Origin: Terriglobia bacterium | Lineage (GTDB): Bacteria > Acidobacteriota > Terriglobia > 20CM-2-55-15 | DNA: 64,000 nucleotides | Direction of reading: 5' to 3' | Assembly: GCA_965218585.1 (NCBI GenBank) | Contig: CBDCLE010000024.1 | Span: forward strand, 160,001 to 224,000 | Part shown: positions 945 through 63,000 of the stretch, in pieces | Layout: every line of letters starts with the position of its first letter | How positions within the stretch are numbered: the stretch's first letter is position 1 | Made by a program: the position numbers and the translations under genes | Notes under the pieces: model-generated | Seen by the model: only the letters and a program-made list of their open reading frames with translations | The model's database searches: none | Told to the model about the DNA's origin: nothing

Positions 945-986
945 ATTCTCAACGTCCGACAAGATGATTTAACAGGAGTTGAGAAT
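945..986. repeat. 42-bp 17-8-17 palindromic site, copy 1
   Basis: ATTCTCAACGTCCGACA-AGATGATT-TAACAGGAGTTGAGAAT; related copies at 9410, 47665, 50379, 53550, 53608. Confidence 0.85.
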
Positions 987-1049
987 CATTTTCATGGTCG
1001 TTTAGGGAACCGCCGAGTTATTGTCAAAAGTGGTGTTTTGCCGATTGAC

Positions 1050-2297
1050 TCAAGCGGCGGCCTGATCGACGTGGGTCACTTCGATTCCATCGTTGAATTT
1101 CACTCCAGTAATCACCTTGGGCAGATCATCGAATCCTCGTAATCGTCGCCAGTTCTTTTGAGCGCACTGTCCCAGTTTGAACATCATGTGCAGCATGCCA
1201 ACCCGCGTCAGGCAACCCCTGGATCGCTTGGTTCGGTGGCGAATGGTAGCAAAAGTCGACTCAATGGGATTGGTCGTTCGGATGCTCTGCCAGTGCTTGG
1301 CCGGGAAGTTGAAGAAGGCCAGCAGTTCTTCTTTGTCTTTCTGGAGGCAGCGAGTGGCTTTCGGATACTTCGGCTCATAGGTTTCAATGAACAGATCGAA
1401 TGCCTTCTCGGCGTCTGCCTGTGTCTGAGCCCGCCAGATCGCGTGCAAAGCCTGTTTCGCCTTCGCCTGGGCCGACTTCGGGAGCCCGTTCAGTACGTTC
1501 ATGGTCTTGTGCATCCAGCAACGTTGGTGACGTGTCTCGGGATAGATTTCCTCCAGTGCGGCCCAGAATCCCATCGCACCGTCTCCGATGGCCAACTTCG
1601 GGATATTCATCCCACGCGACTTCAGCTTTAACAAGACCTCGCGCCAACTCTGTGTCGATTCCCGGACACCGTCTTCGATTGCCAGAAAACGTTTCTCTCC
1701 GCGTTGATTCGCGCCGATCACCACCAGTGCGCACAACTTGGTTTCTTCGGCCCGCAGTCCGCTGTAGATACCGTCGGCCCAGACATAGACCCAGCGATCG
1801 GCATCCAATCGCTCCTCGCATCCCCGGCGGTACTGCTCGGCCCAGACCTGTTTCAACCGCGATACCGTGCTCGCCGACAGGCCCTGCGCCTGGGGTCCGA
1901 CAAGAACTTTTAGAGCGTCACCCATCTCGCCGCTGGAGACGCCTTTCAAATACAACCACGGCACCGCTGCTTCCAGCGATTTCGTTTTCCGAATGTAGGG
2001 AGGTACCAGGGCCGACCGGAACGTTACCGGGTCGCCAGTCTTCGCTCGGACTTTCGGGATCTGGACCGTTACCGGCCCCAAACCGGTCTGCAGTTCACGT
2101 TCAGGCAGATAACCGTTGCGCACCACCCCGGCGTTGCCCGTCTCGGTTCTCCGATCGCCGTGGTGGGATAGCAGTTCCGCCAATTCGGTTTCCACCGCGC
2201 GTTGGATCAGTTGCTGAGCTCCAACTCGTAGTAGCTCTGTTATCGGATCCTCAATCGTCTCTCGACCCTCCGGTCCATTCACGTTACTCTTGCTCAT
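1050..2297 (-). CDS. IS256-family (Mutator) transposase, type A
   Basis: RNGY, WADGIY, GDGAMG, QRCWMH, RTTNPIES motifs; probable start MSKSNV. Confidence 0.93.
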   Translation of the reverse strand: MSKSNVNGPEGRETIEDPITELLRVGAQQLIQRAVETELAELLSHHGDRRTETGNAGVVRNGYLPERELQTGLGPVTVQIPKVRAKTGDPVTFRSALVPPYIRKTKSLEAAVPWLYLKGVSSGEMGDALKVLVGPQAQGLSASTVSRLKQVWAEQYRRGCEERLDADRWVYVWADGIYSGLRAEETKLCALVVIGANQRGEKRFLAIEDGVRESTQSWREVLLKLKSRGMNIPKLAIGDGAMGFWAALEEIYPETRHQRCWMHKTMNVLNGLPKSAQAKAKQALHAIWRAQTQADAEKAFDLFIETYEPKYPKATRCLQKDKEELLAFFNFPAKHWQSIRTTNPIESTFATIRHRTKRSRGCLTRVGMLHMMFKLGQCAQKNWRRLRGFDDLPKVITGVKFNDGIEVTHVDQAAA

Positions 2298-2355
2298 AGT
2301 GGCGTATCTCCCTTGGTTGCTTTGAAGTCTGGTAAACAACAAATCAACCAGATAG

Positions 2356-3720
2356 GAGGTCATTACAAAAGGTGTGTAAAAGTCATCAGGCGGCGGCCTT
2401 CGATTTCATCACGACTCTGATGCCGTCAGCGAATTGCTGACCATCATAGACCTCTTGTAAGAGTTCGGATCCTTTTAAGTGTCGCCAAGCCTTCTCAGCG
2501 ACACGTAGTAGCTTCCAGATCATTGCCGTTGCATTCTCGACACGCTTGAATCGGCGAGCGGCGTTGGTGCGGAGGCGAACCATGTCGAAGGGCGATTCGA
2601 CGATGTTGGTTGTTCTCAGATGCACCCAGTGTTGTTTCGGGAACTCATAGAAAGTAATCATCCGGTCCCAGTCCCGCAACAGCGTCTCACCCGCTTTGGG
2701 ATAGTTCTTCTCATATCGGCGGACGAACTGATCCCGCTTTCGTTCGCAGGCCGCGCGGGAGTTCGCGAAGGCCATCCCATGAAGCAGCTGTCTGGCCGCG
2801 GGCTGCTCGGTCTTCGGCAGATGATCGACCACGTTGATCGACTTGTGGTTCCAGCAGCGTTGTTCCTGGCCCTGGGGCTGTTGCTCGGCCAGCGCGGACC
2901 AGATGCCCAGGTGACCGTCCGCGACAGTCAGCCGTCCCAGCTTCAGGCCCCGTCTCTGGAGATTGCGCAGAATGCGGCTCCAGGACTCCTTGCTTTCCCG
3001 CTGCCCGCTCTCACAGGCCAACAGCACTTTGCGCCCGTCTGACAAGGCTCCGATGATCACCAGCAATGCCGCTCGCTCTTTCGCGATCCCCGCTTTCACG
3101 TACAAGCCGTCTGCCCACTGGTACACGACCTCGAGGCCGGACAGGTCCTGCTGGACCCACTCGTCATACTCCAACTGCCAGATCGATTTCAGTCGTTGGA
3201 TCGATGCTCGCGACAACGGAGCGCCAGCGCCAAGCAGTCCGCGCATGGCCTGCTCGAAGTCCCCTGTGGCCAGGCCGTGGAGGTAGAGATCGGGAAGTAG
3301 CTCGCCCAGCTGTTTCGATTTCCGTCGAAAATACGGCAGGATCTGACTCTCGAACCGCTCGGCGGTGTTTCGAACCCGAGGTCGTCGAACCTCCATCGTA
3401 CCGTTCATCATTGCGAAGCGTCGCGGTTTCCCGTGACCGTTCCGGTATCCTCGTCGATTCGGACTCCGCTCCGACTTTTCCCGACCCAGAAATTGAGTGA
3501 CTTCGTCCTCGAGCAGCTCCTGTAGCCAGACTTGGACCCGGGATCGCGCCCAGTCCTCCAAACCTTCATACGCGTTCGTTGACGCCACTGATGCCGGTAT
3601 GTTCTTCTTCTTCATGGGTGGTGTACCTTTCTCCCGATTGCTGCCGGGATTGCTTACGGTTTCGAATTCACCGAAAGCGTACACCGCCTTCTCTTTTTAC
3701 ACACCGATTGGAACGACCTC
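2356..3720 (-). mobile_element. IS256-family element type B, copy 1, nested in type A
   Basis: IRs GAGGTCATTACAAAAGGTGTGTAAAA / TTTTACACACCGATTGGAACGACCTC; ACCAGATA duplicated at 2347-2354 and 3721-3728; the uninterrupted site is visible in type A copy 2. Confidence 0.93.
2386..3615 (-). CDS. IS256-family transposase, type B
   Basis: YRNG, WADGLY, ADGHLG, QRCWNH, RTTNIVES motifs; probable start MKKKNI after GAAAGG. Confidence 0.93.
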   Translation of the reverse strand: MKKKNIPASVASTNAYEGLEDWARSRVQVWLQELLEDEVTQFLGREKSERSPNRRGYRNGHGKPRRFAMMNGTMEVRRPRVRNTAERFESQILPYFRRKSKQLGELLPDLYLHGLATGDFEQAMRGLLGAGAPLSRASIQRLKSIWQLEYDEWVQQDLSGLEVVYQWADGLYVKAGIAKERAALLVIIGALSDGRKVLLACESGQRESKESWSRILRNLQRRGLKLGRLTVADGHLGIWSALAEQQPQGQEQRCWNHKSINVVDHLPKTEQPAARQLLHGMAFANSRAACERKRDQFVRRYEKNYPKAGETLLRDWDRMITFYEFPKQHWVHLRTTNIVESPFDMVRLRTNAARRFKRVENATAMIWKLLRVAEKAWRHLKGSELLQEVYDGQQFADGIRVVMKSKAAA

Positions 3721-3774
3721 ACCAGATACGCCGCTCTTCCTCAATCCCTCAAACACCAGATTCGGTTATAACTC

Positions 3775-3868: not shown

Positions 3869-6566
3869 GGTAACTAGTATTTCTTCCGGGATTCGATCTT
3901 CGCTAATTTAACAGCTCGTGGCAAACCTGTGCCCCGTTTGCATGCAGGAGTACGGTTGTCAGCCCACCCAGCGTCAATGGCTCCTACCGCCTCGGCGACA
4001 ATGTGACGTCACGCCTCTTCCGGCGTTCCGTTGAAGGCAACCAACGTCATACACCTCAAGCAGCACCCCTCGGGACATCTCGAAGAACCAACTCCTCAAG
4101 AAAAGATCTTAGAAACGATGGGTGTAAACCAACTTGGACGCAAGTTGGCGATCGAAAGTGCTGAGCCCGTCCAGGGGGTCGCTGAGCCAGTTGTGGTTGT
4201 ACACCAGATACAGGTCGTTGCCTGGATTCAGAATCCAGCGGAATCGGGCCTGCCATCCCAGGTTCCGGCTGTCGTTGTCGTACTGGATGATGTCGGCGAA
4301 CGAAATCCAGGGGCTGAACTGAGCGTTCACTTCCCCTCTTAAGGTACTGACCGAGAAGCTGCCCTGAGGCAGTTCGATACGGGTCCATTGGTTGTCCAGG
4401 CCGATGGAGAGCCCGCTGCGTGGCCGGATGGTCAAACGGGGCCCGAAATCGCGGCGCGTTCCGCTGAAGTAATCGCCCCATCTGAACCGTCCGCCGAAAG
4501 AGACGGGCCGCTGGCTACTCGTGTTCCAGAAGGCATCATAGCTGTTGTACCGGTACTGGGTTCCTGCCGGCAGGATCACAGAACCGTTCGGTCCCATCCT
4601 GAAGTCACTCTGAAGCCTCTCGAACTCCCGGAAGATACCGAAACCGAAGAAATCGCCGGTATGAAAGGTCATCTGGAACAGGTCGAAAACGAGCGACTGC
4701 GACAACATAACGTTTCGGCTGTCGTCGGTCTGGTTGAAGCCCACGCTCCATTGGAACTGTCGGATCAGGGGGTGGTTTTCCGGGCGGGGCGAGAGGCGAA
4801 GGAAACTATCGTATTGTTTGATACCCGTCCGGTTGACGAAACCCACGGCCGGATCGAAATTGGCCTGCGTCTCCGTGAAGCCGACCCGCCATCCCACGAG
4901 ATCGTTGTTGGAATTCACCGACGTCCCGTAGCGCGCGCTATTCCCGGTATCGTCCGGATTCGTCGTTGTTACGTAGTGCGAGGTGAGTGAGAGGTTCTTG
5001 TCACCCATGAAGCGCCGCGTGGTCAAGTTAACATCGAATCCCAGCGTCTGCAGTGCGGGTCCAATCGACGCCGGGTCCGCTATCTGGTCTTCACGCGTGC
5101 TTCGCCGTGTGTAGAGCATGCCAAAGTGGGATTCTGTTAGGATGCGGCGCGCACCTCTGAAAACCGTGAAATCCTCCCCAGGCCGAACGCCGTCTTCCCC
5201 AGTACGTACCTGCAGGATACCAATGTCCTGAGCACCGGCCTGCCCGGTCAGCTTGACCCCGTAGTCGACCCTCTGGGGTTGTCCCTCTGTCAGTCCGATC
5301 CGTCGGCTGAAGAACGCGTCACCGAAACCGGACATAGAAAAGAAGTTACTTCCCTCCAGGAAAAAGTTCCGCTTTTCAGGGAATCGAAGAGAAAATCGGG
5401 TCAGGTTGACCTGGCGGTCGTCCACCTCGGTTTCCGCAAAGTCTGTGTTGACCGTGAAGTTGGCCCTGAGGCTGGGCGTCACGTTGTAGATAAAATCGAC
5501 CCCACTGTCTCCTGTATAGGAGGCGTCTGTCCTGTTCCCCGGCGAGGATCGGGCTCGCCCCGTCGCGTAGGGTCTCACATCCAAACCGATGCCCTGACTG
5601 ATTTCCGACATGCCTACGATCAAGCCGGCATTGGACATCCTCCGCAGGCCTCCGCTGGTGCGCCCGAAACCGTTCCAAATGGTTTCCTCGTTCTTTCGCC
5701 GTACTGTTCGTTGGAAATTGATTCCCCACGCCTGCGCGTTCGGATCAAAGTTCAGCGTGCGGAACGGCATTTCGACTTCGATGACCCACCCGATCTCGCT
5801 CCGGCGAACCTCCGCGTCCCAGATTCCGTCCCAGGCGCCGCCTCCACCTCCGCCGAACCCGCCTCCACCTCCACCAGGGAAACCGCCACCTCCACCAGGG
5901 AATCCTCCGCCTCCGAAGAATCCTCCTCCACTGACGAGTTGGTCGCCCATGGCTCCGGAAGGATTCATCTCGAAGAAATACCCGGTCCGTTCGTCCAGGT
6001 AGGTGTCGAAGACCCACATGAATCGGTCGTCGGCGTCCAGGAAGGCATCCCGCTGCATGGTGTTTCCCATGAGCTGGTCGGGTTCGGAGTCGTAGAGGAT
6101 TACCCCCATGTACATATTGTTGTCATTGAAGAGGATGTACACCTCGGTGGGCTCGGTCGCCGCGGCTCCGTTGTCCGGGTCGATCTGGATGAACTCTGTC
6201 GCCGGTTCGGCCCGGCCCCACGAGATTTCATCCAGGCGGCCATCGAGGTTGATGCTTTCGCCCGGCTGGAGTCGCGAGGCGGCCATGACCCGGCGGTCTT
6301 CGAAGCCGTCGAGGCCTTCTTGCGCCTGGACCTGTGATGTTGTCTGTCCGAGAAACACAAGAGTCGCTTTGACAACGTAAAAAGAGCCCACCCCGATCGA
6401 GTAAAAAGGACCCACCCCCCGGGTTAATGGTTTGTAAGTAAATCCGCCGTCGGGGTTGCGGGAAGTGTGGAAGCCGAAAGCTTCCAAGCCGCGGTGGTAA
6501 CGCGCCGGCTTTGCAGCGGGTTTCCACGGTGGCGACACTTTCCACAGCCGCTCGCTCGCGTGTGTT

Positions 6567-7358
6567 TCACGCGGAACCTTGGGCGGACCGGGGTTTCTTC
6601 TTCCGCTTGCCCGCGGCACCGAGACTCTCGGTGAAGCGGATACTTTCCCAATCGAACTGATGAATCGCACAGTGATGGGTCAATCGGTCCAGCAGGGCCG
6701 CGGTCAGGGCGGCATCGCCGAACACGCTGGTCCACTGCGCAAACGGCAGGTTCGACGTCACGATGAGGGAACCCTTTTCGTACCGGTCCGAGAAGACCTG
6801 AAACAGCAACTGGGCGCCCTCGGCCGAGAACGGGATATAGCCGACCTCGTCGACGATGAGCAGCTCGAAGCGGGACAACTTCGCCAGTTGCCGCTTCAAC
6901 TGTCGCTCCTCACGGGACTCGATCAGCGTATTGACCCGCCCCGCGGCCGTGGTGAACCCGACGCGGTAGCCCCTCCGGCAGGCTTCCACGCCCAGCACCG
7001 TCGCGGCGTGGGTCTTGCCGGTGCCGTGCTTGCCCAACAGCACGACGTTCTCGCACCGGGTGATGGTGTCGCACTCGGCATAGTCGCGCACCTGGACCGC
7101 ATCCAGTGCCGGCCACTTGTTCAGGTCGGTCGTTTCCAGGGTTTTCAACCGTGGGAACCGGGCCGTGCGCAACCGGCGCTGGATCTGATTGGCTTGCCGC
7201 TGTTCCAACTCGCGACTGGCCAGAGCCAGCAGAAAGCCGGGGTACCCCTCGCCGGCTTCCTTGGCCTGCCGGCCGTATTCCCGCCAGGCACGGACCATGG
7301 CCGGCAACCGGAGCTGCCGCAATGCGTCGTCCAGGACCACCTCCTGTCCCGGAGTCAT
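6567..7358 (-). CDS. istB: IS21 helper ATPase IstB
   Basis: Walker A GKHGTGKT, LLIVDEVGY, TSNLPF..W, LLDRL; ATGA overlap with the istA stop. Confidence 0.93.
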   Translation of the reverse strand: MTPGQEVVLDDALRQLRLPAMVRAWREYGRQAKEAGEGYPGFLLALASRELEQRQANQIQRRLRTARFPRLKTLETTDLNKWPALDAVQVRDYAECDTITRCENVVLLGKHGTGKTHAATVLGVEACRRGYRVGFTTAAGRVNTLIESREERQLKRQLAKLSRFELLIVDEVGYIPFSAEGAQLLFQVFSDRYEKGSLIVTSNLPFAQWTSVFGDAALTAALLDRLTHHCAIHQFDWESIRFTESLGAAGKRKKKPRSAQGSA

Positions 7359-8884
7359 CGCACACCTCCAGCCAACAGGTCGTATCGATTCAGATCGGTT
7401 CCGGCAATCGCCCGGTCCGTGATCCCGGGCATCAGTCCGGACTCGAGCGGGGCATGGGATCGGGCGGGTGCGTCCTCCCGCATCAGAATGTGCCGCACCG
7501 CTTCCAGTTCGACGCAGTGGGCATCGAGCGCATCCTGGACGGCGGCCGACACCCGGCCCAGATCCCAGTTCTGGTGGAGTTGCAGGATGCTGATGAACTC
7601 CCGGGTGCCCCGGCTGTACCCATGCCGGTCCCGCAACCGCTCCAGCACCGTCTCGTAATGGGCCGGCCACTGGGGCCGCCACTGCCGGATCGGGCGGGCA
7701 CTCTCAAACGAGGCCACCTTCCGCCGGATCAACTCCAGGTAGTGCAACGGATCGGTCCGCCAGTCGCTATGACCGAAGGCGCGGGCATGTTCGGCCACCT
7801 TCTTCTGGTCCGCGTAAAAGCTCACCCGGTCACAGCCGATATGGGCCCAGAGCCGGCGTCCCACATACGCGGTCGGCACCGAGTAGCGGTTCGAATCCAC
7901 CTGGGCGGTCTGGTACCGGCTGATCCGCACGCCCACCACCTTCGTGTTTTCGAATGGCGTCTCGGGCAGCGCCAACAGGCGCTCTTTCTCGACCGCGTGC
8001 CGTTCCCCGATCGTGCGGGCGTCGGCCCGGCCGCCGATCCGGCGCTGCTCGTCGGTCGCGCAGCGTTCCAGCAGCTGCGCGTTCAGTTCCTCGAAGTCGG
8101 CCACCTCGGGAACCGGCACCAGGAAATTCCGGCGTGCGAAACCGACCAGACCCTCGACACCACCTTTCTCCTGGCCCCGGGCCGGATTACAGAACCGCGC
8201 TTCAAAGGTGTAGTGGGCTCGTAACGCCGTGAACCGGTCCTGCTCGATCCGGGCCTTCCCCCTCAGAATCCGCCTCACAGCTGTCTTCAGGTTATCGAAG
8301 ACCACGGCCGGGAATACGCCGCCGTACCAGCCGAACGCCCGGATGTGACCGTCCAGGAACATCGCCTGCCGTTCCCGCGGATACGCCCGCACGAACGACT
8401 TGCCCGAGTACCGGCTCCGCATGCAGAACAGTTTGACCTGAACGTCTTCACCCTTCATCCGGACCCAGCCCGTCCCCCAGTCCACTTCCGCTTCCCGCGC
8501 CTGTTCCGGATCCAGCGGCACCACCGCCCCCGGCCGGTGCCAGCCCAAACGCATCTTCCGCTCCCGTACCCATCGCCGCACCGTCGGCTCGGCTCCGGTG
8601 AACCCATGTTCATCGACCAGGCGCCGCCATACCCGGTGCGCCGTGTGCCGCTGCTTGACCGGCTGCTCCCGATCGGCCCGCAGCCAGCCCTCCACGATCC
8701 CGGCCACCGGGTCCATCACCGGACAGGCCGGCTCCTTCTCCCGCCGATACTTCGGCTCCTGGCCGGCCAATACTTTCCGGACCGTCCGTCTCGTGTGCCC
8801 GGTCTCCCGGGCGATCTGTCGAATGCTTTTCTTGTAAACTCGATGTGCGGTCCTGACCATCTCGTACTGATCCATCCCTAACAA
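7355..8884 (-). CDS. istA: IS21 transposase IstA
   Basis: N-terminal HTH, EAEVDWG, FDNLKTAV, EKGGVEGLVG, NRYSVP. Confidence 0.93.
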   Translation of the reverse strand: MLGMDQYEMVRTAHRVYKKSIRQIARETGHTRRTVRKVLAGQEPKYRREKEPACPVMDPVAGIVEGWLRADREQPVKQRHTAHRVWRRLVDEHGFTGAEPTVRRWVRERKMRLGWHRPGAVVPLDPEQAREAEVDWGTGWVRMKGEDVQVKLFCMRSRYSGKSFVRAYPRERQAMFLDGHIRAFGWYGGVFPAVVFDNLKTAVRRILRGKARIEQDRFTALRAHYTFEARFCNPARGQEKGGVEGLVGFARRNFLVPVPEVADFEELNAQLLERCATDEQRRIGGRADARTIGERHAVEKERLLALPETPFENTKVVGVRISRYQTAQVDSNRYSVPTAYVGRRLWAHIGCDRVSFYADQKKVAEHARAFGHSDWRTDPLHYLELIRRKVASFESARPIRQWRPQWPAHYETVLERLRDRHGYSRGTREFISILQLHQNWDLGRVSAAVQDALDAHCVELEAVRHILMREDAPARSHAPLESGLMPGITDRAIAGTDLNRYDLLAGGVR

Positions 8885-9231
8885 CTCCTTATCCTCCCTC
8901 CGCCATGCCGGTTCATCCAGGCACTCGCCGGGGGAGGCTATCAGGGTGGGTCCTTTTTCCTCGATCAGAACCCCGTTTGGTGGGTCCTTTTTACGTTATC
9001 GAAATCACAAGAGTAAGGAAGAACAGCAGCGGAGCTGTCGGTAGGATTCTTTTCATATCGAGCTAGTAGTCCTCTAAGTCAAACGGTTACCGGAGGCGTA
9101 ATCACATCCCGCGATTGGACGTTCCGGACTGATCGGGGTGAGCAACTCAATTTCTCGGGCGTCAAAGAAACCAGATCATCCTCATCTCAGGTTCGATTCG
9201 AAGAGCGTTCTAAGCTGACGGACGAAGACAC

Positions 9232-9335
9232 TCATTCGATGTTGGCTACTTCACGGGCACGCCTCACCTCTCCCATTCCACCTTTCCCATGCGGCTGAGA
9301 ATCTCGTAATGGCCGAGTTTGGTGCCAGATTCCAT
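9232..9335 (-). pseudogene. Ser/Thr protein kinase N-terminal remnant (frameshifted)
   Basis: MESGTKLGHYEILS / GKGGMGEVRRARE; similarity ends after RAR(E). Confidence 0.8.
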
Positions 9336-9409
9336 GTTCAAGTGTGTCGCTGAAAAAACCGAGAGAAACTCGGTAAAAGATACTAGAGGAGAGAGTTAGT
9401 TGGCATCCA

Positions 9410-9451
9410 ATTCTCAACGCTTGTTAAACGACATTGTCGGACGTTGAGAAT
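9410..9451. repeat. 42-bp palindromic site, copy 2
   Basis: ATTCTCAACGCTTGTTA-AACGACAT-TGTCGGACGTTGAGAAT. Confidence 0.85.
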
Positions 9452-13606: not shown

Positions 13607-13658
13607 TTAATTCGGGGACAGTGATCAAATTCGAATTTGCTCACTGTCCCCGAATTAA
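13607..13658. repeat. GGGGACAG-type REP-like palindrome
   Basis: TTAATTCGGGGACAGTGA...TCACTGTCCCCGAATTAA, near-perfect 52-bp inverted repeat. Confidence 0.7.
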
Positions 13659-15581: not shown

Positions 15582-16967
15582 GAGTTATTGTCAAAAGTGG
15601 TGTTTTGCCGATTGACTCAAGCGGCGGCCTGATCGACGTGGGTCACTTCGATTCCATCGTTGAATTTCACTCCAGTAATCACCTTGGGCAGATCATCGAA
15701 TCCTCGTAATCGTCGCCAGTTCTTCTGAGCGCACTGTCCCAGTTTGAACATCATGTGCAGCATGCCAACCCGCGTCAGGCAACCCCTGGATCGCTTGGTT
15801 CGGTGGCGAATGGTAGCAAAAGTCGACTCAATGGGATTGGTCGTTCGGATGCTCTGCCAGTGCTTGGCCGGGAAGTTGAAGAAGGCCAGCAGTTCTTCTT
15901 TGTCTTTCTGGAGGCAGCGAGTGGCTTTCGGATACTTCGGCTCATAGGTTTCAATGAACAGATCGAATGCCTTCTCGGCGTCTGCCTGTGTCTGAGCCCG
16001 CCAGATCGCGTGCAAAGCCTGTTTCGCCTTCGCCTGGGCCGACTTCGGGAGCCCGTTCAGTACGTTCATGGTCTTGTGCATCCAGCAACGTTGGTGACGT
16101 GTCTCGGGATAGATTTCCTCCAGTGCGGCCCAGAATCCCATCGCACCGTCTCCGATGGCCAACTTCGGGATATTCATCCCACGCGACTTCAGCTTTAACA
16201 AGACCTCGCGCCAACTCTGTGTCGATTCCCGGACACCGTCTTCGATTGCCAGAAAACGTTTCTCTCCGCGTTGATTCGCGCCGATCACCACCAGTGCGCA
16301 CAACTTGGTTTCTTCGGCCCGCAGTCCGCTGTAGATACCGTCGGCCCAGACATAGACCCAGCGATCGGCATCCAATCGCTCCTCGCATCCCCGGCGGTAC
16401 TGCTCGGCCCAGACCTGTTTCAACCGCGATACCGTGCTCGCCGACAGGCCCTGCGCCTGGGGTCCGACAAGAACTTTTAGAGCGTCACCCATCTCGCCGC
16501 TGGAGACGCCTTTCAAATACAACCACGGCACCGCTGCTTCCAGCGATTTCGTTTTCCGAATGTAGGGAGGTACCAGGGCCGACCGGAACGTTACCGGGTC
16601 GCCAGTCTTCGCTCGGACTTTCGGGATCTGGACCGTTACCGGCCCCAAACCGGTCTGCAGTTCACGTTCAGGCAGATAACCGTTGCGCACCACCCCGGCG
16701 TTGCCCGTCTCGGTTCTCCGATCGCCGTGGTGGGATAGCAGTTCCGCCAATTCGGTTTCCACCGCGCGTTGGATCAGTTGCTGAGCTCCAACTCGTAGTA
16801 GCTCTGTTATCGGATCCTCAATCGTCTCTCGACCCTCCGGTCCATTCACGTTACTCTTGCTCATAGTGGCGTATCTCCCTTGGTTGCTTTGAAGTCTGGT
16901 AAACAACAAATCAACCAGATACGCCGCTCTTCCTCAATCCCTTAAACACCAGATTCGGTTATAACTC
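15582..16967 (-). mobile_element. IS256-family element type A, copy 2 (no target duplication)
   Basis: Same IRs as copy 1, 1386 bp, near identical; flanks do not match each other. Confidence 0.93.
15617..16864 (-). CDS. IS256-family transposase, type A
   Basis: Protein matches 1050-2297. Confidence 0.93.
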   Translation of the reverse strand: MSKSNVNGPEGRETIEDPITELLRVGAQQLIQRAVETELAELLSHHGDRRTETGNAGVVRNGYLPERELQTGLGPVTVQIPKVRAKTGDPVTFRSALVPPYIRKTKSLEAAVPWLYLKGVSSGEMGDALKVLVGPQAQGLSASTVSRLKQVWAEQYRRGCEERLDADRWVYVWADGIYSGLRAEETKLCALVVIGANQRGEKRFLAIEDGVRESTQSWREVLLKLKSRGMNIPKLAIGDGAMGFWAALEEIYPETRHQRCWMHKTMNVLNGLPKSAQAKAKQALHAIWRAQTQADAEKAFDLFIETYEPKYPKATRCLQKDKEELLAFFNFPAKHWQSIRTTNPIESTFATIRHRTKRSRGCLTRVGMLHMMFKLGQCAQKNWRRLRGFDDLPKVITGVKFNDGIEVTHVDQAAA

Positions 16968-24910: not shown

Positions 24911-24963
24911 TGCCGAAAGGTAAATACAATCGTCTACTACTTAAGTGCTGGCGTCTTTCGACT

Positions 24964-26335: not shown

Positions 26336-26385
26336 TGTAGGTGCGGTCTATGACCGCACATGTGCGCTCATAGACCGCACCTACA
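26336..26385. repeat. GTAG-family REP doublet
   Basis: TGTAGGTGCGGTCTATGA...TCATAGACCGCACCTACA, inverted pair each with an internal palindrome. Confidence 0.75.
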
Positions 26386-39493: not shown

Positions 39494-39583
39494 TAAAAAG
39501 GGGACAGACATCCTTTTTTCTGCGTAAGCGAAGTGTTTTCTTGTTGATAGGTAAAAAAGGTGTCTGTCCCCTTTTTATTACCT
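39488..39583. repeat. GGGGACAG-type long inverted repeat between convergent holA and rpsT (probable bidirectional terminator)
   Basis: GGTAATAAAAAGGGGACAGACA...TGTCTGTCCCCTTTTTATTACC. Confidence 0.75.
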
Positions 39584-44316: not shown

Positions 44317-44416
44317 CCTCGGCGGTCACCCAAAACCGGCCAATGGTGGTCACCTGAAAACCGGCCAACGATAGAGGCCCGGGACATTGACAGCAGGCGG
44401 AGTAATCTCCGTCGGC

Positions 44417-46785: not shown

Positions 46786-46839
46786 AACTACACCGTCCCG
46801 GGCCATGCCCGTTGGCCGGTTTTGAAGTGACCACTGAGG

Positions 46840-47599: not shown

Positions 47600-47629
47600 G
47601 AACTGAAGGAGCGGGTGCCCGTGCCGTAA
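47600..47629 (+). pseudogene. Kinase C-terminal remnant
   Basis: ELKERVPVP*. Confidence 0.7.
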
Positions 47630-47664: not shown

Positions 47665-47706
47665 ATGCTCGAGTGCTGTTAAATCATCTTGTTGGACGTT
47701 GAGAAT
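47665..47706. repeat. 42-bp palindromic site, copy 3
   Basis: ATGCTCGAGTGCTGTTA-AATCATCT-TGTTGGACGTTGAGAAT. Confidence 0.85.
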
Positions 47707-47754
47707 TGGCCTAGATACGGGCGCCAACCTTCTGATTGCTTTACAAATTCCTCT

Positions 47755-49120
47755 GAGGTCGTTCCAATCGGTGTGTAAAAAGAGAAGGCGGTGTACGCTT
47801 TCGGTGAATTCGGAACCGTAAGCAATCCCGGCAGCAATCGGGAGAAAGGTACACCACCCATGAAGAAGAAGAACATACCGGCATCAGTGGCGTCAACGAA
47901 CGCGTATGAAGGTTTGGAGGACTGGGCGCGATCCCGGGTCCAAGTCTGGCTACAGGAGCTGCTCGAGGACGAAGTCACTCAATTTCTGGGTCGGGAAAAG
48001 TCGGAGCGGAGTCCGAATCGACGAGGATACCGGAACGGTCACGGGAAGCCGCGACGCTTCGCAATGATGAACGGTACGATGGAGGTTCGACGACCTCGGG
48101 TTCGAAACACCGCCGAGCGGTTCGAGAGTCAGATCCTGCCGTATTTTCGACGGAAATCGAAACAGCTGGGCGAGCTACTTCCCGATCTCTACCTCCACGG
48201 TCTGGCCACAGGGGACTTCGAGCAGGCCATGCGCGGACTGCTTGGCGCTGGCGCTCCGTTGTCGCGAGCATCGATCCAACGACTGAAATCGGCCTGGCAG
48301 TTGGAGTATGACGAGTGGGTCCAGCAGGACCTGTCCGGCCTCGAGGTCGTGTACCAGTGGGCAGACGGCTTGTACGTGAAAGCCGGGGATCGCGAAAGAG
48401 CGAGCGGCATTGCTGGTGATCATCGGAGCCTTGTCAGACGGGCGCAAAGTGGTGTTGGCCTGTGAGAGCGGGCAGCGGGAAAGCAAGGAGTCCTGGAGCC
48501 GCATTCTGCGCAATCTCCAGAGACGGGGCCTGAAGCTGGGACGGCTGACTGTCGCGGACGGTCACCTGGGCATCTGGTCCGCGCTGGCCGAGCAACAGCC
48601 CCAGGGCCAGGAACAACGCTGCTGGAACCACAAGTCGATCAACGTGGTCGATCATCTGCCGAAGACCGAGCAGCCCGCGGCCAGACAGCTGCTTCATGGG
48701 ATGGCCTTCGCGAACTCCCGCGCGGCCTGCGAACGAAAGCGGGATCAGTTCGTCCGCCGATATGAGAAGAACTATCCCAAAGCGGGTGAGACGCTGTTGC
48801 GGGACTGGGACCGGATGATTACTTTCTATGAGTTCCCGAAACAACACTGGGTGCATCTGAGAACAACCAACATCGTCGAATCGCCCTTCGACATGGTTCG
48901 CCTCCGCACCAACGCCGCTCGCCGATTCAAGCGTGTCGAGAATGCAACGGCAATGATCTGGAAGCTACTACGTGTCGCTGAGAAGGCTTGGCGACACTTA
49001 AAAGGATCCGAACTCTTACAAGAGGTCTATGATGGTCAGCAATTCGCTGACGGCATCAGAGTCGTGATGAAATCGAAGGCCGCCGCCTGATGACTTTTAC
49101 ACACCTTTTGTAATGACCTC
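47755..49120 (+). mobile_element. IS256-family element type B, copy 3
   Basis: Same IRs; 8-bp duplication ATTCCTCT at 47747-47754 and 49121-49128; 1 bp longer than the other copies. Confidence 0.94.
47860..49090 (+). pseudogene. IS256 type B transposase with a +1 frameshift near 48383
   Basis: AAGCCGGGGATC here versus AAGCGGGGATC in the other two copies. Confidence 0.8.
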
Positions 49121-49187
49121 ATTCCTCTCTTAGTATTCCTTACCGAGTCTTGCGCGGTTTTCGCGACACTCCATAACCCTGTCAAGA

Positions 49188-50222: not shown

Positions 50223-50300
50223 CTGGGTCTCCTCGTTCAACAGCAAGACCGCGCTGTGCTGTACTTTCTAGTTACTTGAACATGGGCACGGCTGATTCGA

Positions 50301-50318
50301 CGGGTGCCGGTACCGTAA
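50301..50318 (+). pseudogene. Kinase C-terminal remnant (very short)
   Basis: CGGGTGCCGGTACCGTAA = RVPVP*, 60 bp before palindrome copy 4. Confidence 0.55.
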
Positions 50319-50378
50319 TTCTTTAAGGCTAACTCCCGATCATCTTCGCTGACACTAAAAACCCCATCTTTTAGCCCT

Positions 50379-50420
50379 TTTTTCACTGTCCGAGAAGATC
50401 GTTTGCGAGGACTTGAGAAT
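50379..50420. repeat. 42-bp palindromic site, copy 4 (diverged)
   Basis: TTTTTCACTGTCCGAGA-AGATCGTT-TGCGAGGACTTGAGAAT. Confidence 0.75.
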
Positions 50421-52492: not shown

Positions 52493-52797
52493 TCGTCAAC
52501 ATGGAAACGATCAATCAAGATCGTGTGCGGCTGCTCGATTCACCGGCTTACCCGAATGTCAGTGAGGCTTACGCTGAGACCTTCGACAGGCAAAAGAGAC
52601 TGGCAGGAACCTTCGATGTCTGGGTTTCATCACATGCCGGTCATTTCGGACTTCACGATAAATTCGAGCCTGGAGACTCTTACGATCCGGAGCGCTTCGT
52701 CGGGATCGACGAATATTTGGAACGCATTCAGCAGTACGAGCAGATCTATCAAGATAAGCTCAAACAAGAACGGCAAGATCGATTGACCAAAGAATGA
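52486..52797 (+). pseudogene. Subclass B3 metallo-beta-lactamase C-terminal remnant
   Basis: VLIVNM..IN, P.YP....Y..TF, DVWVSSHAGHFGLHDK..PGD.YDP.RFV; HxHxDH region absent. Confidence 0.7.
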
Positions 52798-52818
52798 GGT
52801 CAAGTCCTGAGAAATCAT

Positions 52819-52917
52819 GCCAGCTCAACCGGTCGCTGCAACACATGCATTAAATGTCTCTGCCGGAGTTGCGAACTCCAGAGTCTTGCGTGGCCGTTGG
52901 TTGAGCCTTCTTGCAAT
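52819..52917 (-). mobile_element. IS30-family remnant (transposase C-terminus and right end)
   Basis: Manual translation IARRLNQRPRKTLEFATPAETFNACVAATG*. Confidence 0.8.
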
Positions 52918-53513: not shown

Positions 53514-53543
53514 AACTGATTCGAGGAACTGAAGGAACGGGTG
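53514..53543 (+). pseudogene. Kinase C-terminal remnant
   Basis: N*FEELKERV directly before palindrome copy 5. Confidence 0.7.
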
Positions 53544-53549
53544 ATTGTG

Positions 53550-53648
53550 GAGGTCAAGTCCTGAGAAATCATCTTGTCGGACGTTGAGCATTGGCGAATT
53601 ACTGAGGTTTTTCAACGTCCGGAAAGTCGTTTGTCAGGACTTGAGAGT
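53550..53648. repeat. Inverted pair of palindromic sites (copies 5 and 6)
   Basis: GAGGTCAAGTCCTGAGA-AATCATCT-TGTCGGACGTTGAGCAT (53550-53591) and TTTTTCAACGTCCGGAA-AGTCGTT-TGTCAGGACTTGAGAGT (53608-53648). Confidence 0.8.
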
Positions 53649-53720
53649 TTTCTTGCGTATAAATCCCATCTGTAGTCAGATTTACGCACCTTACGGTCCG
53701 CTTCGACATACACTAAAAGA

Positions 53721-54869: not shown

Positions 54870-54928
54870 GAGATTGTCGTTGTCTTGAACTGGCTCGAAG
54901 AACTGAAGGAACGGTGACTGTGCCGTAG
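54870..54928 (+). pseudogene. Kinase C-terminal remnant (frameshifted)
   Basis: EIVVVLNWLEELKER / VTVP*. Confidence 0.8.
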
Positions 54929-55084
54929 AGTCGGTTGTAGCCCTTCCCGCCCTCAACCTCTCAAAAGCCAATCTCAAGTCTTGGTGTCCGGGTGCTGGAC
55001 GGTCAGGAAAAAACTCGCCGCGACGGGCACTACATTAGTGTTAACACGCCCTAGAGAAGCATTGGGGAGTTTGGGAGGACGACT

Positions 55085-56223: not shown

Positions 56224-56255
56224 TGCAGATTGGCAGTTGGTGATCGGGGTGGGGA

Positions 56256-58055: not shown

Positions 58056-58255
58056 GCTCCTTGGAGCGTAGAGACGCCCGTTTTGATCAGAACTAAATGT
58101 AAGAAAGCTGGTGAAAGTCTATCGACGAATGGAATTGGAAGCAACGAATTCTCGACTTCCAACGTAGGGGATCCAAGCACCGGACCCGGCCATTACCTAA
58201 TCCGCGACATGAATTGAATTAGAATGCACGTGACAAACATCAAGAGGGGGAGCAA

Positions 58256-58684: not shown

Positions 58685-58880
58685 CTGGTCAGATCCGGGT
58701 GGCGGAGCCAGGTGCTGGGGCAACAGCGACCGTGTTGCGACTCGCCTTCCCAACGCTTATCGGTTGGTCGCTCGTCTTGAGAGGTTGTCATTTATGATTG
58801 CGTTGATGTTTCGAATTCCGACGACTATGTTTATTGGCGCGAACCAATTTGATGCCGGCTTCGCTCGCTCCCAGTCGAGC

Positions 58881-58931
58881 ATTGTCCTGAACTGGTTCGA
58901 GGATCTGAAGGAACGGTTGCCGGTGCCGTAA
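58881..58931 (+). pseudogene. Kinase C-terminal remnant overlapping the next start codon
   Basis: IVLNWFEDLKERLPVP* with TAATG overlap. Confidence 0.8.
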
Positions 58932-59914: not shown

Positions 59915-59973
59915 TTGTCTCGTTGGTAGGGAACTGCCTGTCCAGGCCTCGCACTCGGATCGACATCTCCCTT

Positions 59974-60084
59974 GAACGAATTGTCGGAAGTTGAGGATTG
60001 GTAAATTACCTGCGGTTTTCAACCGCCGGCAAACCCGTTTATCTTCACCCGAGAAGCTGCTTGCGTATAAATCTCATCTGTAGT
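59974..60084. repeat. Diverged copy of the 53570-53676 non-coding block
   Basis: TGTCGGAAGTTGAGGAT...TTTTCAACCGCCGG...CTTGCGTATAAATCTCATCTGTAGT. Confidence 0.75.
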
Positions 60085-60130
60085 TGAATTCACAAAGATT
60101 TTTGAAGCTCACTTCCGCACGTTAATTACG

Positions 60131-61603: not shown

Positions 61604-61658
61604 TGCGACACCTCTGCGTCTCTCTAAAATGACGACAAGGTGTGGCCGAAGTTCGTTC

Positions 61659-62702
61659 TCACTGTTGTCTCATCACTTCGACACGCAACGGCGACCACGC
61701 CATGCCATCCGGGCTCTCATGAGCACTCGCCAGAACCCCTGGCTCTGACTCTCCAAGAGAATCCAGATCGAACATGCGGATGGTGCCCTGTCCGGGATCG
61801 CTCACGAAGGCTACGCCATTGTGGATCAACACTCCGAAGTTACCGTCCTGAGGTGTGCCGTCGCGCAATTCCACCTCGGCCAGCATCACGCGTGACGCCA
61901 CGTCGAAGAGGCGTAAGTATTGGGGAACAGGGGGCCCCCCACCGCCGCCGTTGGGCACGATCGCGCGTCCGCCAGGACCGATGTCGACGCGTCCCGCGGA
62001 GCGTCGCGAAGCGACTGTCGCCACAACCTTGAACGACCCAGTGTCGATGACGGAGATAGTCTCCTCCCCTCGGTTCGCAACCCACACTTCTCCGCCGTCG
62101 GGAGTGACGGATATGCCCTCGGCCCCCGTCCCTGTGGGAATTACCAAGGGGGAGCGATCCTCCTCCAAAAAGATGACCGACAGCGTTCCTTCCCCGCCGC
62201 GACTGGTCACATACGCGTGGAGCCCGTCAGGGCTCAGCCGTAACATGTGACCTTCCCGACCCCCGGTCGGATAGGTTCGCACGACTTCCATTCGGTTCAG
62301 GTCTATCAAAGCGATTTCGTCGGAATCCTGCATCGTCGCTAACGCGTGCTGTCCGTCCGGGTGGAAAACGGCCGTGTGAGGGCGCGAGTTCGGACCGAGG
62401 TCGATGCGGCCCATGATGCGTGCGTCCGGTATATCGATCAGAATCACGTGCCTGCCTGGGTTGTTGTTGGGTCCGTACTCGGCGGTCATGGCTAGACGTC
62501 CGTCCGGGGACACCGCCACCTCGTGGGGGATGAGGGGGCCTACCGGTAGACGCGCAGCCTCAACACGGGTTTCAAGATCGATGAGAGAGACGCTTCCGCC
62601 GCTACGGTTGGCCACGACGAGTGTGCCTTCCTGGGCGAGGGCGACGACACACGGTAAGAATAGAATCGCGGAAGCCAGGACCAGGCAGGCTATCGATCGC
62701 AT
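61659..62702 (-). CDS. Secreted YncE/YVTN-type beta-propeller protein
   Basis: PHEVAVSPDG, AEGISVTPDG.EVWVAN, ISVID repeats. Confidence 0.85.
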   Translation of the reverse strand: MRSIACLVLASAILFLPCVVALAQEGTLVVANRSGGSVSLIDLETRVEAARLPVGPLIPHEVAVSPDGRLAMTAEYGPNNNPGRHVILIDIPDARIMGRIDLGPNSRPHTAVFHPDGQHALATMQDSDEIALIDLNRMEVVRTYPTGGREGHMLRLSPDGLHAYVTSRGGEGTLSVIFLEEDRSPLVIPTGTGAEGISVTPDGGEVWVANRGEETISVIDTGSFKVVATVASRRSAGRVDIGPGGRAIVPNGGGGGPPVPQYLRLFDVASRVMLAEVELRDGTPQDGNFGVLIHNGVAFVSDPGQGTIRMFDLDSLGESEPGVLASAHESPDGMAWSPLRVEVMRQQ

Positions 62703-62961
62703 CAATGCGTTCCGAGCTATGCGATGAACCGAGGCAGAGGTGAGGTATGCCGTCCGACAACATTGAGCGGACCGCCCTTTATCTGTCAAAGGGGCTCGAC
62801 TAGGATTGTCCCAAAGGCTGACAACATCGAGAGAATTTGTTACGAATCGGCCTGGCTTTCTTGTCATCGGTGGTCGCCCCTATGATCAACTCGCGTTGAT
62901 ATTACTCCCTCACACCTCCTTCTGTCCAAGTGTGTGATTCGATGCCTGACCATGACTTTCC

Positions 62962-63000
62962 GAGGTCAACTCCCGACAAATCCTGTGGGAAGTTTATAGG
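62962..63000. repeat. Degenerate palindromic site
   Basis: GAGGTCAACTCCCGACA-AATCC-TGTGGGAAGTTTATAGG. Confidence 0.5.

Follow-up and report, generated by a model that had tools for sequence, protein, structure and literature searches.

A polar 42-nucleotide palindrome with two inversely paired subtypes, possibly the unit of a BIME/REPIN-like mosaic repeat

Introduction

What kind of element is an imperfect 42-base palindrome that recurs within a single 64-kb stretch of a Terriglobia genome (the whole analysed stretch is hereafter the window)? A sequence-only reading of this DNA had favoured a recombination site comparable to loxP or FRT, with a dimeric-regulator operator or abutted element ends as alternatives. 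Here, we report an analysis of its copies, their flanks and their surroundings.

Results

Full copies and their polarity

The palindrome is a genuine repeat, and its six full copies were confirmed where they had been placed earlier. A profile built from these copies recovers just the same six in the window (E 2.9e-13 to 1.6e-10, with none expected in shuffles), the next match being 52799-52818 at E 0.0065. The covariance model scores them at 52.1-67.9 bits, and its next matches are the same sites reversed (21.7 and 15.2 bits). With up to three mismatches allowed, a 32-nt degenerate pattern occurs at 2 sites against 0.00 expected, and the 15-nt left arm at 8 sites against 2.52 expected (none of 100 shuffles had as many); the 14-nt right arm occurs at 11 sites against 4.91 expected (one of 100 shuffles had as many). 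Five of the six window copies are 42 nt long; the sixth has 41 nt.

Conserved asymmetry, which had also been claimed, is evident as a clear polarity in every full copy. We call one strand of the palindrome F and use it to set this polarity; its orientation is + - - + - + for the copies beginning at 945, 9410, 47665, 50379, 53550 and 53608. The offset single-base bulges proposed between the arms are present as well, a CAAC-G-TCC arm standing opposite a GGAC-TTG or GGA-GTTG arm. Thirteen of the 16 invariant columns fall in the left arm or centre and three in the right arm.

Two subtypes and an inverted pair

Two centre classes define the subtypes: GATGATTT is found in four of four alpha copies and TCGTTT in four of four beta copies. 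Alpha copies in the window are at 945..986 (F form on the + strand, centre GATGATTT; E 2.9e-13, 67.9 bits), 47665..47706 (- strand; E 3.1e-11, 60 bits) and 53550..53591 (- strand; E 4.5e-12, 63.3 bits). Beta copies are at 9410..9451 (F form on the - strand, centre GTCGTTT; E 1e-11, 57.5 bits), 50379..50420 (+ strand; E 3.7e-11, 53.8 bits; the most diverged of the six) and 53608..53648 (+ strand, the 41-nt copy; E 1.6e-10, 52.1 bits). The 945..986 copy scores 46.7 bits with the alpha profile against 34.2 with the beta profile, and the 9410..9451 copy 41.3 bits with beta against 19.3 with alpha. Each subtype keeps its own conserved flank: a tail block lies F-downstream of alpha in all four copies, and a leader lies F-downstream of beta, clear at 9410, at locus L002 and at 53608, with a remnant at 50379.

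Alpha and beta occur in inverted orientation, 12-16 nt apart, and thus together make up an almost perfect palindrome about 100 nt long. One such pair is intact, at 53550-53648, with the alpha copy as its left half, the beta copy as its right half and 16 nt between them. As single-stranded DNA this pair (53546-53652) reaches a folding energy of -23.7 kcal/mol (z -6.19; none of 200 shuffles was as good), and in the fold the arms meet exact complements and the bulges vanish. The outer arms of the 53550 copy have no mutual complementarity; this copy is a join of two arm variants. Decayed pairs are found at 50331/50379 and 59964/60016. Across the array from 47.6 to 63 kb, all seven alpha copies and relics share one polarity, and the three beta copies are likewise uniform.

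Single copies fold poorly as single-stranded DNA, with z below -2 on both strands in two of the six, and the 47665..47706 copy alone does not fold (0 kcal/mol). Covariation analysis, suggested earlier as a means of separating hairpin from duplex recognition, gave thin support for pairing: 82.3% of cells are paired, compared with a shuffle value of 79.1% that 38 of 500 shuffles raise to the observed level, and covariation is 0.131 versus 0.063 (12 of 500 as high). Sequence conservation of the element exceeds its structure conservation.

Partial and decayed copies

Among five partial copies proposed from the sequence, those at 52796-52818, 59982-59998 and 62962-63000 are real and decayed, whereas the other two are at chance level: about 26% of shuffles are as good as 54970-54983, and 58148-58164 on its own is not above chance. 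The alpha half copy at 52796..52818 (- strand) is 100% identical to the left 23 nt of the 53550 copy (alpha profile E 0.0008); it begins where a B3 metallo-beta-lactamase-like gene fragment has its stop codon and terminates in the palindrome centre. The segment 59982-59998 is the right arm of a decayed alpha copy at 59964..59998 (- strand; score 30, about 1 in 300 shuffles; covariance model 10.8 bits, E 2.2), which is also identified by flank homology, the 105-nt block around this arm having 78% identity to 53574-53676. Its partner, a decayed beta copy at 60016..60043 (+ strand; beta profile E 0.27), is in register with 53608-53648 within the same block. Another decayed alpha copy, at 62963..62994 (- strand; alpha profile E 0.0028; score 41, none of 300 shuffles), carries a GGTCAAC arm variant common to locus L003. 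Local alignment to the alpha copies places a further decayed alpha, with a 4-nt deletion, at 50331..50353 (- strand), directly left of the beta copy at 50379 (score 27, where shuffles average 15.3 and about 1 in 300 does as well). A tentative alpha-like copy lies at 52839..52870 (- strand; score 25, equalled by about 1% of shuffles). Neither of these two was recovered by the alpha and beta profiles.

Junction modules

The palindromes belong to a larger module, in the order short tail block reading as the last codons of a gene, alpha, linker, beta and conserved leader. These modules divide unrelated gene blocks of 1-4 kb over 47.6-63 kb, where one intact pair remains among about six module positions and most sites are decayed. 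The alpha-side tail block (25-50 nt) lies on the + strand at 47600..47629 (ELKERVPVP-stop, 35 nt before the alpha copy). Further tail blocks on that strand are at 50300..50320 (RRVPVP-stop, with 58 nt between it and the beta copy at 50379), 53514..53549 (N*FEELKERVIV, running directly into the alpha copy), 54888..54917 (NWLEELKER-stop, 150 nt past the DctP stop codon) and 58890..58931 (NWFEDLKERLPVP-stop, palindrome-free downstream). The last of these ends an ORF of 45 aa whose stop overlaps the start of a PALP (cysteine-synthase-like) gene.

Two conserved leaders are found on the beta side. Motif 2 lies F-downstream of the beta copy at 9336..9388 (- strand), with a 59-point local alignment to locus L002, and again at 49128..49172 (+ strand), where, with IS-B disregarded, it follows on the right of the 47665 alpha copy. 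The other leader contains a 25-mer, CTTGCGTATAAATCYCATCTGTAGT, that has two matches without mismatches against 0.00 expected; it follows beta at 53652..53685 (+ strand), 36 nt before the DctP start codon, and recurs at 60060..60093 (+ strand) before an LVIVD-repeat gene.

Breakpoints, insertion sequences and searches

Homology between copies stops at the palindrome centre or at its outer edge; that between 53574-53676 and 59981-60084 begins at the inner end of the right arm. IS256-family copies lie close to two alpha copies, IS-A being inserted 28 nt to the right of 945..986 and IS-B 47 nt to the right of 47665..47706. None of the 73 scanned ORFs of the window encodes a tyrosine, serine or HUH recombinase, a RAYT or an integrase. 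True matches to the element elsewhere number two among 185,579 species genomes.

Discussion

A BIME/REPIN-like repeat as the best explanation

Several known systems resemble parts of this anatomy. The REPs of E. coli are described as types y, z1 and z2, paired inversely across linkers with set flanking motifs, and their stem mismatch as needed by TnpA-REP, which recombines REPs in vitro. Like REP/BIME units, the 42-mer is a short imperfect extragenic palindrome whose subtypes are paired inversely across a short linker with set flank motifs, and in both a stem irregularity gives direction to each unit. It differs in length (42 nt versus 30-40 nt for REP), in its sequence-conserved 17-nt centre and in flanks that resemble a gene end and a gene start. 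The REP super-families described are defined by a GTAG or CGTC foot tag, and no conserved tag of either kind is found at the foot of the hairpin here, nor a RAYT gene in the window. In accounts of Pseudomonas, the doublet (REPIN) is regarded as the replicative unit and singlets as its remnants, and REPINs reportedly have a random distribution in extragenic space. The inverted doublet with a short spacer that forms one long hairpin is shared with the REPINs described from P. fluorescens, and lone units here may likewise be doublet remnants; however, lone 42-mers are as well kept as paired ones, and their flanks are related rather than random.

We tentatively read the 42-mer, at less than even confidence, as the unit from which a BIME/REPIN-like mosaic repeat of intergenic DNA is built, and as a recombination-prone structure. 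What the analysis establishes is how the element is built and oriented, that it comes in two subtypes with flanks of their own, that the pair folds strongly and single copies weakly, and that many copies have decayed. The two subtypes and their flanks, the pair fold, the uniform polarity of the array, the breakpoints, the nearby IS copies and the narrow distribution count in favour of this reading. Against it stand the missing foot tag and the lack of a RAYT or HUH gene in the window, the poor folding of single copies with its thin pairing support, and a copy number of six full copies and about six relics in 64 kb. Lone copies conserved to the same degree as paired ones (all six at 52-68 bits) are unlike REPIN singlets, and the 17-nt centre is conserved in sequence where a plain hairpin loop need not be. 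Moreover, the flanks of all eight good copies are related, which leaves independent insertion at unrelated sites unsupported.

Alternative explanations

The idea of a recombination site gains from the polarity, the better-kept arm and centre, the two centre classes, the homology breaks and the separation of unrelated blocks. Its simple loxP/FRT-type form fits less well. Inverted arms about an asymmetric 8-nt centre are indeed shared, but loxP and FRT each occur as a single site beside a recombinase gene, whereas the 42-mer is a decaying multi-copy family inside a larger module, half of an inverted pair with fixed flanks and in related contexts.

A more elaborate form, which we hold to be unlikely though deserving of real weight, makes the alpha/beta module a genuine target of site-specific recombination and the limit of mobile gene blocks, like pdif or a folded attC. 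A recombinase from elsewhere would swap strands in the asymmetric centre, and cassettes of 1-4 kb would be gained or lost between modules. Between 47.6 and 63 kb, unrelated blocks do meet at modules of one polarity, and two more modules lie on the other strand around 0.9-9.5 kb; the tail blocks are direct repeats, as expected of a duplicated target-gene end. The half copy that ends in the centre and the copy with chimeric arms also fit, and sequence is kept where folding is not, which favours recognition as duplex DNA. Acinetobacter plasmid pdif/dif modules (XerC/XerD) are likewise described as bounded by polar imperfect palindromes with one better-kept arm, and as flanked by inverted sites; the better-kept arm and centre here match the conservation described for the XerD and XerC halves of dif sites. 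Yet dif sites are 28 nt long (11-6-11), whereas the unit here is 42 nt (17-8-17), paired and chromosomal. In integron attC sites, as in the folded pair, two boxes are paired, the middle is partly unpaired and the end forms a loop, and the single unit shares their one-base bulge; the sites here, too, recur with one polarity between gene blocks. However, some copies do not match the attC core motifs, each half is itself palindromic, the blocks are larger with genes on both strands, and the window has no integron integrase. The mostly decayed array and the lack of any integrase or recombinase among the 73 scanned ORFs are further difficulties.

We consider it quite unlikely that a recently duplicated gene family carries the palindromes as its cis-regulatory elements, with beta as an operator upstream of a promoter and alpha as a 3' hairpin past a stop codon; the dispersed look would then arise because genes were copied with their flanks and later mostly deleted. 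Consistent with this are the related flanks at every good copy and an alpha-side block that reads as a C-terminal-like peptide plus stop in six loci, the stop being TAA or TAG throughout. At 9335 motif 2 leads into a start codon with its stub ORF (MESGTKLGHYEILS..., 9267-9335), and L002 has a decayed equivalent. In seven of eight copies the hairpin is slightly stabler on the module's sense strand, and six of seven G-T wobbles fall there. But the tail blocks come after complete unrelated genes: DctP, an AhpC-like gene in L003 and a TPR ORF that has its own stop at 47486 upstream of the 47600..47629 block. They vary at 7, 6 and 10 sites in first, second and third codon positions, a weak bias; the stub, of putative kinase-like appearance, has no match in Pfam or PDB, and searches did not find the gene family, of which the window holds no intact member. 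At 60060-60093 the leader is well preserved beside decayed palindromes. No promoter-like or terminator-like site overlaps any copy, and two copies lie between convergent genes when IS insertions are set aside, which also weakens the earlier suggestion of a dimeric-regulator operator.

That the 42-mer is two abutted IS ends, or a MITE moved by a DDE transposase, is very improbable. Its inverted-repeat arms, the TGT...ACA inner ends of some copies and the IS-rich window point that way, but for the four IS types compared (IS-A, IS-B and both IS21 copies) abutted ends were rejected, with end similarities of 5-8 at or below shuffle means of 6.6-7.0. No copy has a flanking target-site duplication, and blastn gave no match to the element among plasmids and a single chance match (E 0.6) among phages. 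A structured RNA (small RNA, riboswitch or leader) is scarcely probable either: a hairpin with a conserved loop and a slight sense-strand bias would suit it, but the folds are weak, orientation relative to the nearest real genes is not fixed, and the Rfam match sought earlier was absent over every copy at the gathering score or E up to 5.

Possible mode of action

Under the preferred reading of a BIME/REPIN-like repeat, the functional unit would be the pair rather than the 42-mer, and lone copies would be leftovers after partner decay or deletion between similar arms. When the DNA is single-stranded or supercoiled, the pair may extrude into a hairpin or cruciform, which an enzyme from another part of the genome would bind and cut in trans; by analogy the candidate is a RAYT-like HUH enzyme, with a tyrosine recombinase as another possibility. 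The centre and edges of the element would be points of DNA breakage and rejoining, which would account for the build-up of unrelated gene blocks, gene fragments and IS copies between modules. In mRNA, the element may plausibly have a side role as a 3' hairpin, or as a barrier to read-through from one gene into its neighbour. As hairpin-forming, REP/BIME-like structures between unrelated gene blocks, the alpha/beta modules may mark sites of DNA rearrangement.

Six Full Copies of a Directional Palindrome

The six full copies of the imperfect 17-8-17 palindrome (945, 9410, 47665, 50379, 53550, and 53608, named by start) lie exactly where the sequence-only reading had placed them. When a profile built from these copies is used to search the window on both strands, it recovers the six and no others (E 2.9e-13 to 1.6e-10), and the next-best match, at 52799-52818, has an E of 0.0065. 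With a covariance model the six copies score 52.1-67.9 bits. The best remaining matches are two of the six sites read on the opposite strand (21.7 and 15.2 bits), and therefore the 42-mer has a direction. The directional center claimed in the earlier reading is thus recovered with both models. We define the F form as the strand reading ATTCTCAACGTCCGACAAGATGATTTAACAGGACTTGAGAAT, which is the + strand at 945, 50379, and 53608 and the - strand at 9410, 47665, and 53550. A 32-nt pattern matches twice in the window (0.00 expected from shuffles), and a left-arm 15-mer matches eight times versus 2.52 expected, a count reached in none of 100 shuffles. All six copies are intergenic relative to real genes; the only ORFs that overlap them have no Pfam match.

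Two Subtypes With Their Own Flanks

We aligned eight good copies, which comprise the six window copies and one copy at each of two loci in other genomes, L002 and L003. Four have the center GATGATTT (945, 47665, 53550, and L003; alpha), and four have the center TCGTTT (9410, 50379, 53608, and L002; beta). With four copies in each class the sample is small, and because the profiles for alpha and beta were built from the very copies that they score, they are not an independent test of the subtypes.

Flank type tracks subtype. Every alpha copy has on its F-downstream side, 0-35 nt away, a 25-50-nt block, one frame of which gives ...NW(F/L)E(E/D)LKER(V/L)PVP and then a stop, like the last codons of a gene. 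These tail blocks lie at 47600-47629, at 53514-53549, at 937-978 in L003, and beside the 945 copy, where the block is split by the IS256-family element IS-A. Further tail blocks are found at 50300-50320, 54888-54917, and 58890-58931. They come after genes that have their own complete ends (a TPR ORF that ends at 47486, DctP, and an AhpC-like gene in L003), and thus are not simply the ends of those genes. Their coding signal is weak: codon positions 1, 2, and 3 vary at 7, 6, and 10 sites, respectively. Word-index searches for longer proteins that could represent the parent family gave no match at E up to 10, and there was no match in Pfam or NCBIfam. With HMMER against 1.84 billion representatives, the only matches were the 45-aa ORF of the window itself (58797-58931), which ends in a tail block and corresponds to predicted protein P0002 in a public protein library, and a 2728-aa coiled-coil protein that is unrelated and repeats a look-alike motif nine times.

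Beta copies have conserved leaders on their F-downstream side. One of these, motif 2, occurs in L002 and at 9336-9388, and the 50379 copy is followed by a remnant of it; motif 2 is also found at 49128-49172, beyond the alpha copy 47665 when IS-B, the second IS256-family type, is set aside. A second leader (53652-53685 and 60060-60093) contains a 25-mer for which the same pattern matched at both sites with 0 mismatches, versus 0.00 expected. At 9267-9335 (- strand), motif 2 is followed by a start codon and a stub ORF that reads MESGTKLGHYEILS... and slips frame after ~18 codons; L002 has the equivalent at ~830-900 without the start codon. We take the stub to be reminiscent of a Hanks-type kinase start; it has no match in Pfam or PDB.

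The Alpha/Beta Pair

An alpha and a beta copy face each other head to head at 53550-53648, across a 16-nt linker. Taken jointly, the two copies have every arm opposite its exact complement (TCAAGTCCTGA with TCAGGACTTGA, and CGGACGTTGA with TCAACGTCCG). The offset bulges that had been described between the arms are present within a single 42-mer, but vanish when the pair is read as one. As single-stranded DNA, the 107-nt pair stretch folds at -23.7 kcal/mol (z -6.19), and none of 200 shuffles folds as well. With 70 nt of flank on each side, folds are near random at five of the eight loci (z -1.5 to +1.2), and those that stand out are only the loci that include the pair, and L003.

Two decayed pairs were identified. 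In the first, an alpha relic with a 4-nt deletion (50331-50353) precedes the beta copy 50379; in the second, 59964-59998 precedes 60016-60043 within a block of 105 nt that shares 78% identity with the intact pair plus leader. Beside the beta copies 9410 and L002 no decayed alpha copy is demonstrable (14% and 99% of shuffles are as good, respectively). Five partial copies had been proposed, and three of them hold. The half copy 52796-52818 matches the left 23 nt of the 53550 copy without a difference, and 59982-59998 forms the right arm of the decayed copy 59964-59998. A decayed copy is present at 62962-63000, with an E of 0.0028 for the alpha profile and no equally good match among 300 shuffles. 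Taken alone, the remaining two (54970-54983 and 58148-58164) do not rise above chance, and no decayed alpha copy is demonstrable at 54960-55015, where 26% of shuffles are as good.

Polarity is uniform by subtype across 47.6-63 kb: the seven alpha copies or relics (47665, 50331, 52796, tentatively 52839, 53550, 59964, and 62963) all point one way and the three beta copies (50379, 53608, and 60016) the other. The module of tail block, alpha, linker, beta, and leader is reversed at the other side of the window, where the order along the - strand is beta 9410, leader, alpha 945. Cumulative GC skew is lowest at ~16-18 kb. Most genes lie on the - strand before this point and on the + strand after it, and the repeat modules follow this switch.

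Sequence and Structure of the Single Unit

Single copies fold poorly. As single-stranded DNA, only 945 and 9410 fold better than their shuffles on each of the two strands, with z of -2.6 to -4.0; 47665 has no fold at all, and the remaining copies have z of -2.0 to 0.0. Across the eight copies the arms pair at 82.3% of positions versus 79.1% in shuffles (38 of 500 as high). Two arm pairs are changed on both sides, and the covariation score is 0.131 versus 0.063 in shuffles (12 of 500 as high). Covariation had been suggested as a way to separate hairpin from duplex recognition; it gives thin support for pairing, and the sequence is what is kept. The 16 invariant columns are distributed with 13 in the left arm and center and 3 in the right arm. 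The hairpin is more stable on the module-sense strand in seven of eight copies, and six of seven G-T wobbles are on that strand; neither bias is significant. Such conservation is consistent with recognition of an irregular stem together with a specific sequence, and does not fit a plain structural hairpin.

Distribution Beyond the Window

We scanned 185,579 species genomes, a set that does not include the source genome, with a strict 22-nt degenerate core that matches four of the six window copies, and found three loci. L002 is a full copy (47.2 bits) on a 2.8-kb contig binned as Dehalococcoidia, and L003 is a copy on a Terriglobia MAG chromosome (32.4 bits) in which the outer arms are altered and still complementary. 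The third, a partial match in Novipirellula, was taken as chance. L003 also encodes an IS91-family (Y2 HUH) transposase (1486-2022), the end of which is 464 nt from the palindrome copy; no IS91-family transposase gene is found near the window copies. The 186-nt pair region had no blastn match in plasmids, and its one match in phages (E 0.6) was taken as chance. A search of a protein collection for further copies via spurious ORFs gave no candidate with enough shared words. In the literature searched we found no description of a REP/BIME-type repeat family for Acidobacteria, for which the available portion of a survey reports only RAYT-like genes with other inverted repeats.

Gene Blocks, Insertion Sequences, and Signs of Breakage

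The window has a G+C content of ~57% and encodes housekeeping genes, including AlaRS, RecX, Era, YbeY, AccBC, PilO, a PilQ-like secretin, LptE, a BshC-like protein (bacillithiol), and ribosomal protein S20. This gene content, together with the related Terriglobia MAG chromosome that carries L003, suggests that the source is an acidobacterium. The secretin (19401-21903) is spread over several ORFs with AMIN, STN/Secretin_N, and Secretin domains and may be frameshifted. The 64 kb hold seven insertion sequence copies, which belong to two IS256-family types, one nested in the other, and to the IS21 family. IS-A is present at 1015-3774, with a 9-nt target duplication, and at 15582-16967; IS-B is nested in the first of these at 2356-3721 and recurs at 24963-26328 and 47754-49120; the two IS21-family elements are at ~6395-8994 and 44346-46834. 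In the third IS-B copy a 1-nt indel splits the transposase into ORFs 47791-48465 and 48410-49090.

The blocks between modules are mutually unrelated, and some have genes on both strands while others hold fragments only. They comprise (i) an MBL-fold gene and IS-B, (ii) an esterase, the last ~80 codons of a B3 metallo-beta-lactamase-like gene, and a thioredoxin-like gene, (iii) a TRAP-transporter DctP gene, (iv) a DUF6152 gene, a CMD gene, and a dioxygenase gene, (v) a PALP enzyme, (vi) an LVIVD-repeat protein and a beta-propeller, and (vii) nitrile hydratase alpha and beta. The nitrile hydratase alpha subunit and the start of the beta subunit (63012-64000) directly follow the last decayed palindrome. 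The B3-like ORF (52501-52797) matches only the C-terminal ~80 residues of subclass B3 models (64 versus a 560-bit cut-off) and is a gene fragment, the stop codon of which adjoins the half palindrome.

Several junctions fall at the 42-mer itself. The half copy 52796-52818 begins exactly at the outer edge of the palindrome and ends in its center, and homology between the 53.5-kb and 60-kb modules starts at the inner end of the alpha right arm. The left arm of 53550 is of the GGTCAAG kind, as at 62963 and in L003, and the right arm is of the other kind; the outer arms of this copy therefore do not pair. The same cores occur with different flanks: the left flank is either a tail block or the end of the B3-like gene, and the right flank is either motif 2 or the other leader. 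Two alpha copies have an IS256-family insertion close by, at distances of 28 and 47 nt. These signs of breakage are few, and all point the same way.

Comparison With Known Systems

For REP/BIME, REPIN, dif, and RAYT-like elements we relied on a joint set of sources (PMC3733652, PMC3116915, PMC3333891, and PMC6449649). There, REPs are defined by an unpaired conserved GTAG (or CGTC) tetranucleotide at one hairpin foot. The E. coli REPs y, z1, and z2 pair inversely across linkers with set flanking motifs, and the REP-associated Y1 enzyme, which cuts REPs and recombines them as single strands, requires a mismatch in the stem. In Pseudomonas, the inverted REPIN doublet is considered the replicative unit and singlets are considered remnants.

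E. coli REP/BIME is the closest described anatomy and Pseudomonas REPIN the next closest. Like these, the 42-mer is a short imperfect palindrome repeated outside genes, with units paired inversely across a 16-nt linker into one hairpin and two more pairs decayed. For this reason we tentatively lean toward a BIME/REPIN-like mosaic repeat whose working unit would be the alpha/beta pair and which may act as a recombination-prone structure; we regard this as possible rather than probable. The 42-mer differs in that no tetranucleotide is common to either end of the eight copies (CGTC occurs inside the left arm, across the bulge) and in that all eight have related, not random, flanks, which counts against REP/BIME/REPIN membership. 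Thus, with the foot tag missing and the flanks related, we do not count it as a member of the REP family. Among the 73 window ORFs no RAYT (Y1 HUH) gene was found.

Other palindromes are also present in the window. The one at 26336-26385 spans 50 nt and is near-perfect; its two inverted units each start with GTAG, followed by a short hairpin, which gives it the look of a classical tagged REP doublet. It is the sole such pair in the window and lies 7 nt from the right end of the second IS-B copy. The palindromes at 13607-13658 and 39488-39583 carry GGGGACAG, which fits the GGGGWSAS motif reported in the same sources from inverted repeats around RAYT-like "TIRYT" genes, Acidobacteria included. 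The second of these lies between the convergent genes for DNA polymerase III delta and ribosomal protein S20 and may be a mere terminator, given the A and T runs alongside.

A site-specific recombination site bounding cassettes is nearest to the original idea of a recombination site, and we consider it unlikely. Such a site would account for the direct repeats of tail block plus alpha, for the two center classes, and for the conserved sequence. The likeness to loxP and FRT stands as far as two inverted arms around a short asymmetric spacer and a directional center are concerned; against it, no integrase or recombinase domain was found among the 73 window ORFs, and the Pfam scan of these ORFs revealed no tyrosine or serine recombinase and no Y1 or Y2 HUH domain. 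Xer dif sites measure 28 nt, with two 11-nt arms and a 6-nt center (same sources). The 42-nt unit departs from dif and pdif in that its conserved core TCAACGTCCGACAAG plus center is longer than a dif half site.

Quite unlikely, in our view, is that the copies are regulatory flanks of a duplicated gene family. The copies do not qualify as intrinsic terminators (a G+C-rich stem and then a T run): 47-64 kb holds 11 terminator-like sites, and no copy coincides with any of them. An operator of a dimeric regulator would be expected at a fixed place relative to the promoters of its regulon; the copies occupy convergent, tandem, and divergent gene gaps, and no sigma-70-like site was found near them. 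A by-eye search found no target-site duplications, conserved foot tetranucleotide, sigma-54-type promoter, or any of several regulator boxes.

A bolder reading, and a long shot, is that 47.6-63 kb would be a decayed chromosomal gene-capture array of an undescribed kind, an acidobacterial counterpart of integrons and dif modules. Cassettes of 1-4 kb with their own leaders would lie between ~100-nt alpha/beta sites that carry the last codons of a target gene and are acted on by a recombinase encoded elsewhere. Integron attC sites have two 7-nt end core motifs, span ~55-140 nt, and share one polarity in an array next to the integron integrase gene. The single unit here is 42 nt, its end motifs are not constant (the first base of the right arm is G in three of the eight copies and C in five), and the window ORFs include no integrase; only the polarity of the alpha copies matches.

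Insertion sequence or MITE ends, proposed earlier as abutted TGT-type ends, are very improbable, as the copies have no similarity to the eight IS ends of the window and no target-site duplications at their borders. An RNA gene is likewise very improbable, as the Rfam comparison that had been suggested gave no family over any copy, at gathering score or at E up to 5.

If the BIME/REPIN-like reading is right, the 42-mer family would carry the REP/BIME pattern of typed units, inverted pairs, and set flanks to a new phylum, without the usual tag. Should an enzyme act on the 42-mer, its polarity, bulge, and two center classes would allow direct binding and cutting tests. The family marks the seams of a very mosaic region rich in gene fragments and insertion sequence copies, and thus offers a handle on how such soil genomes gain and lose blocks of genes.
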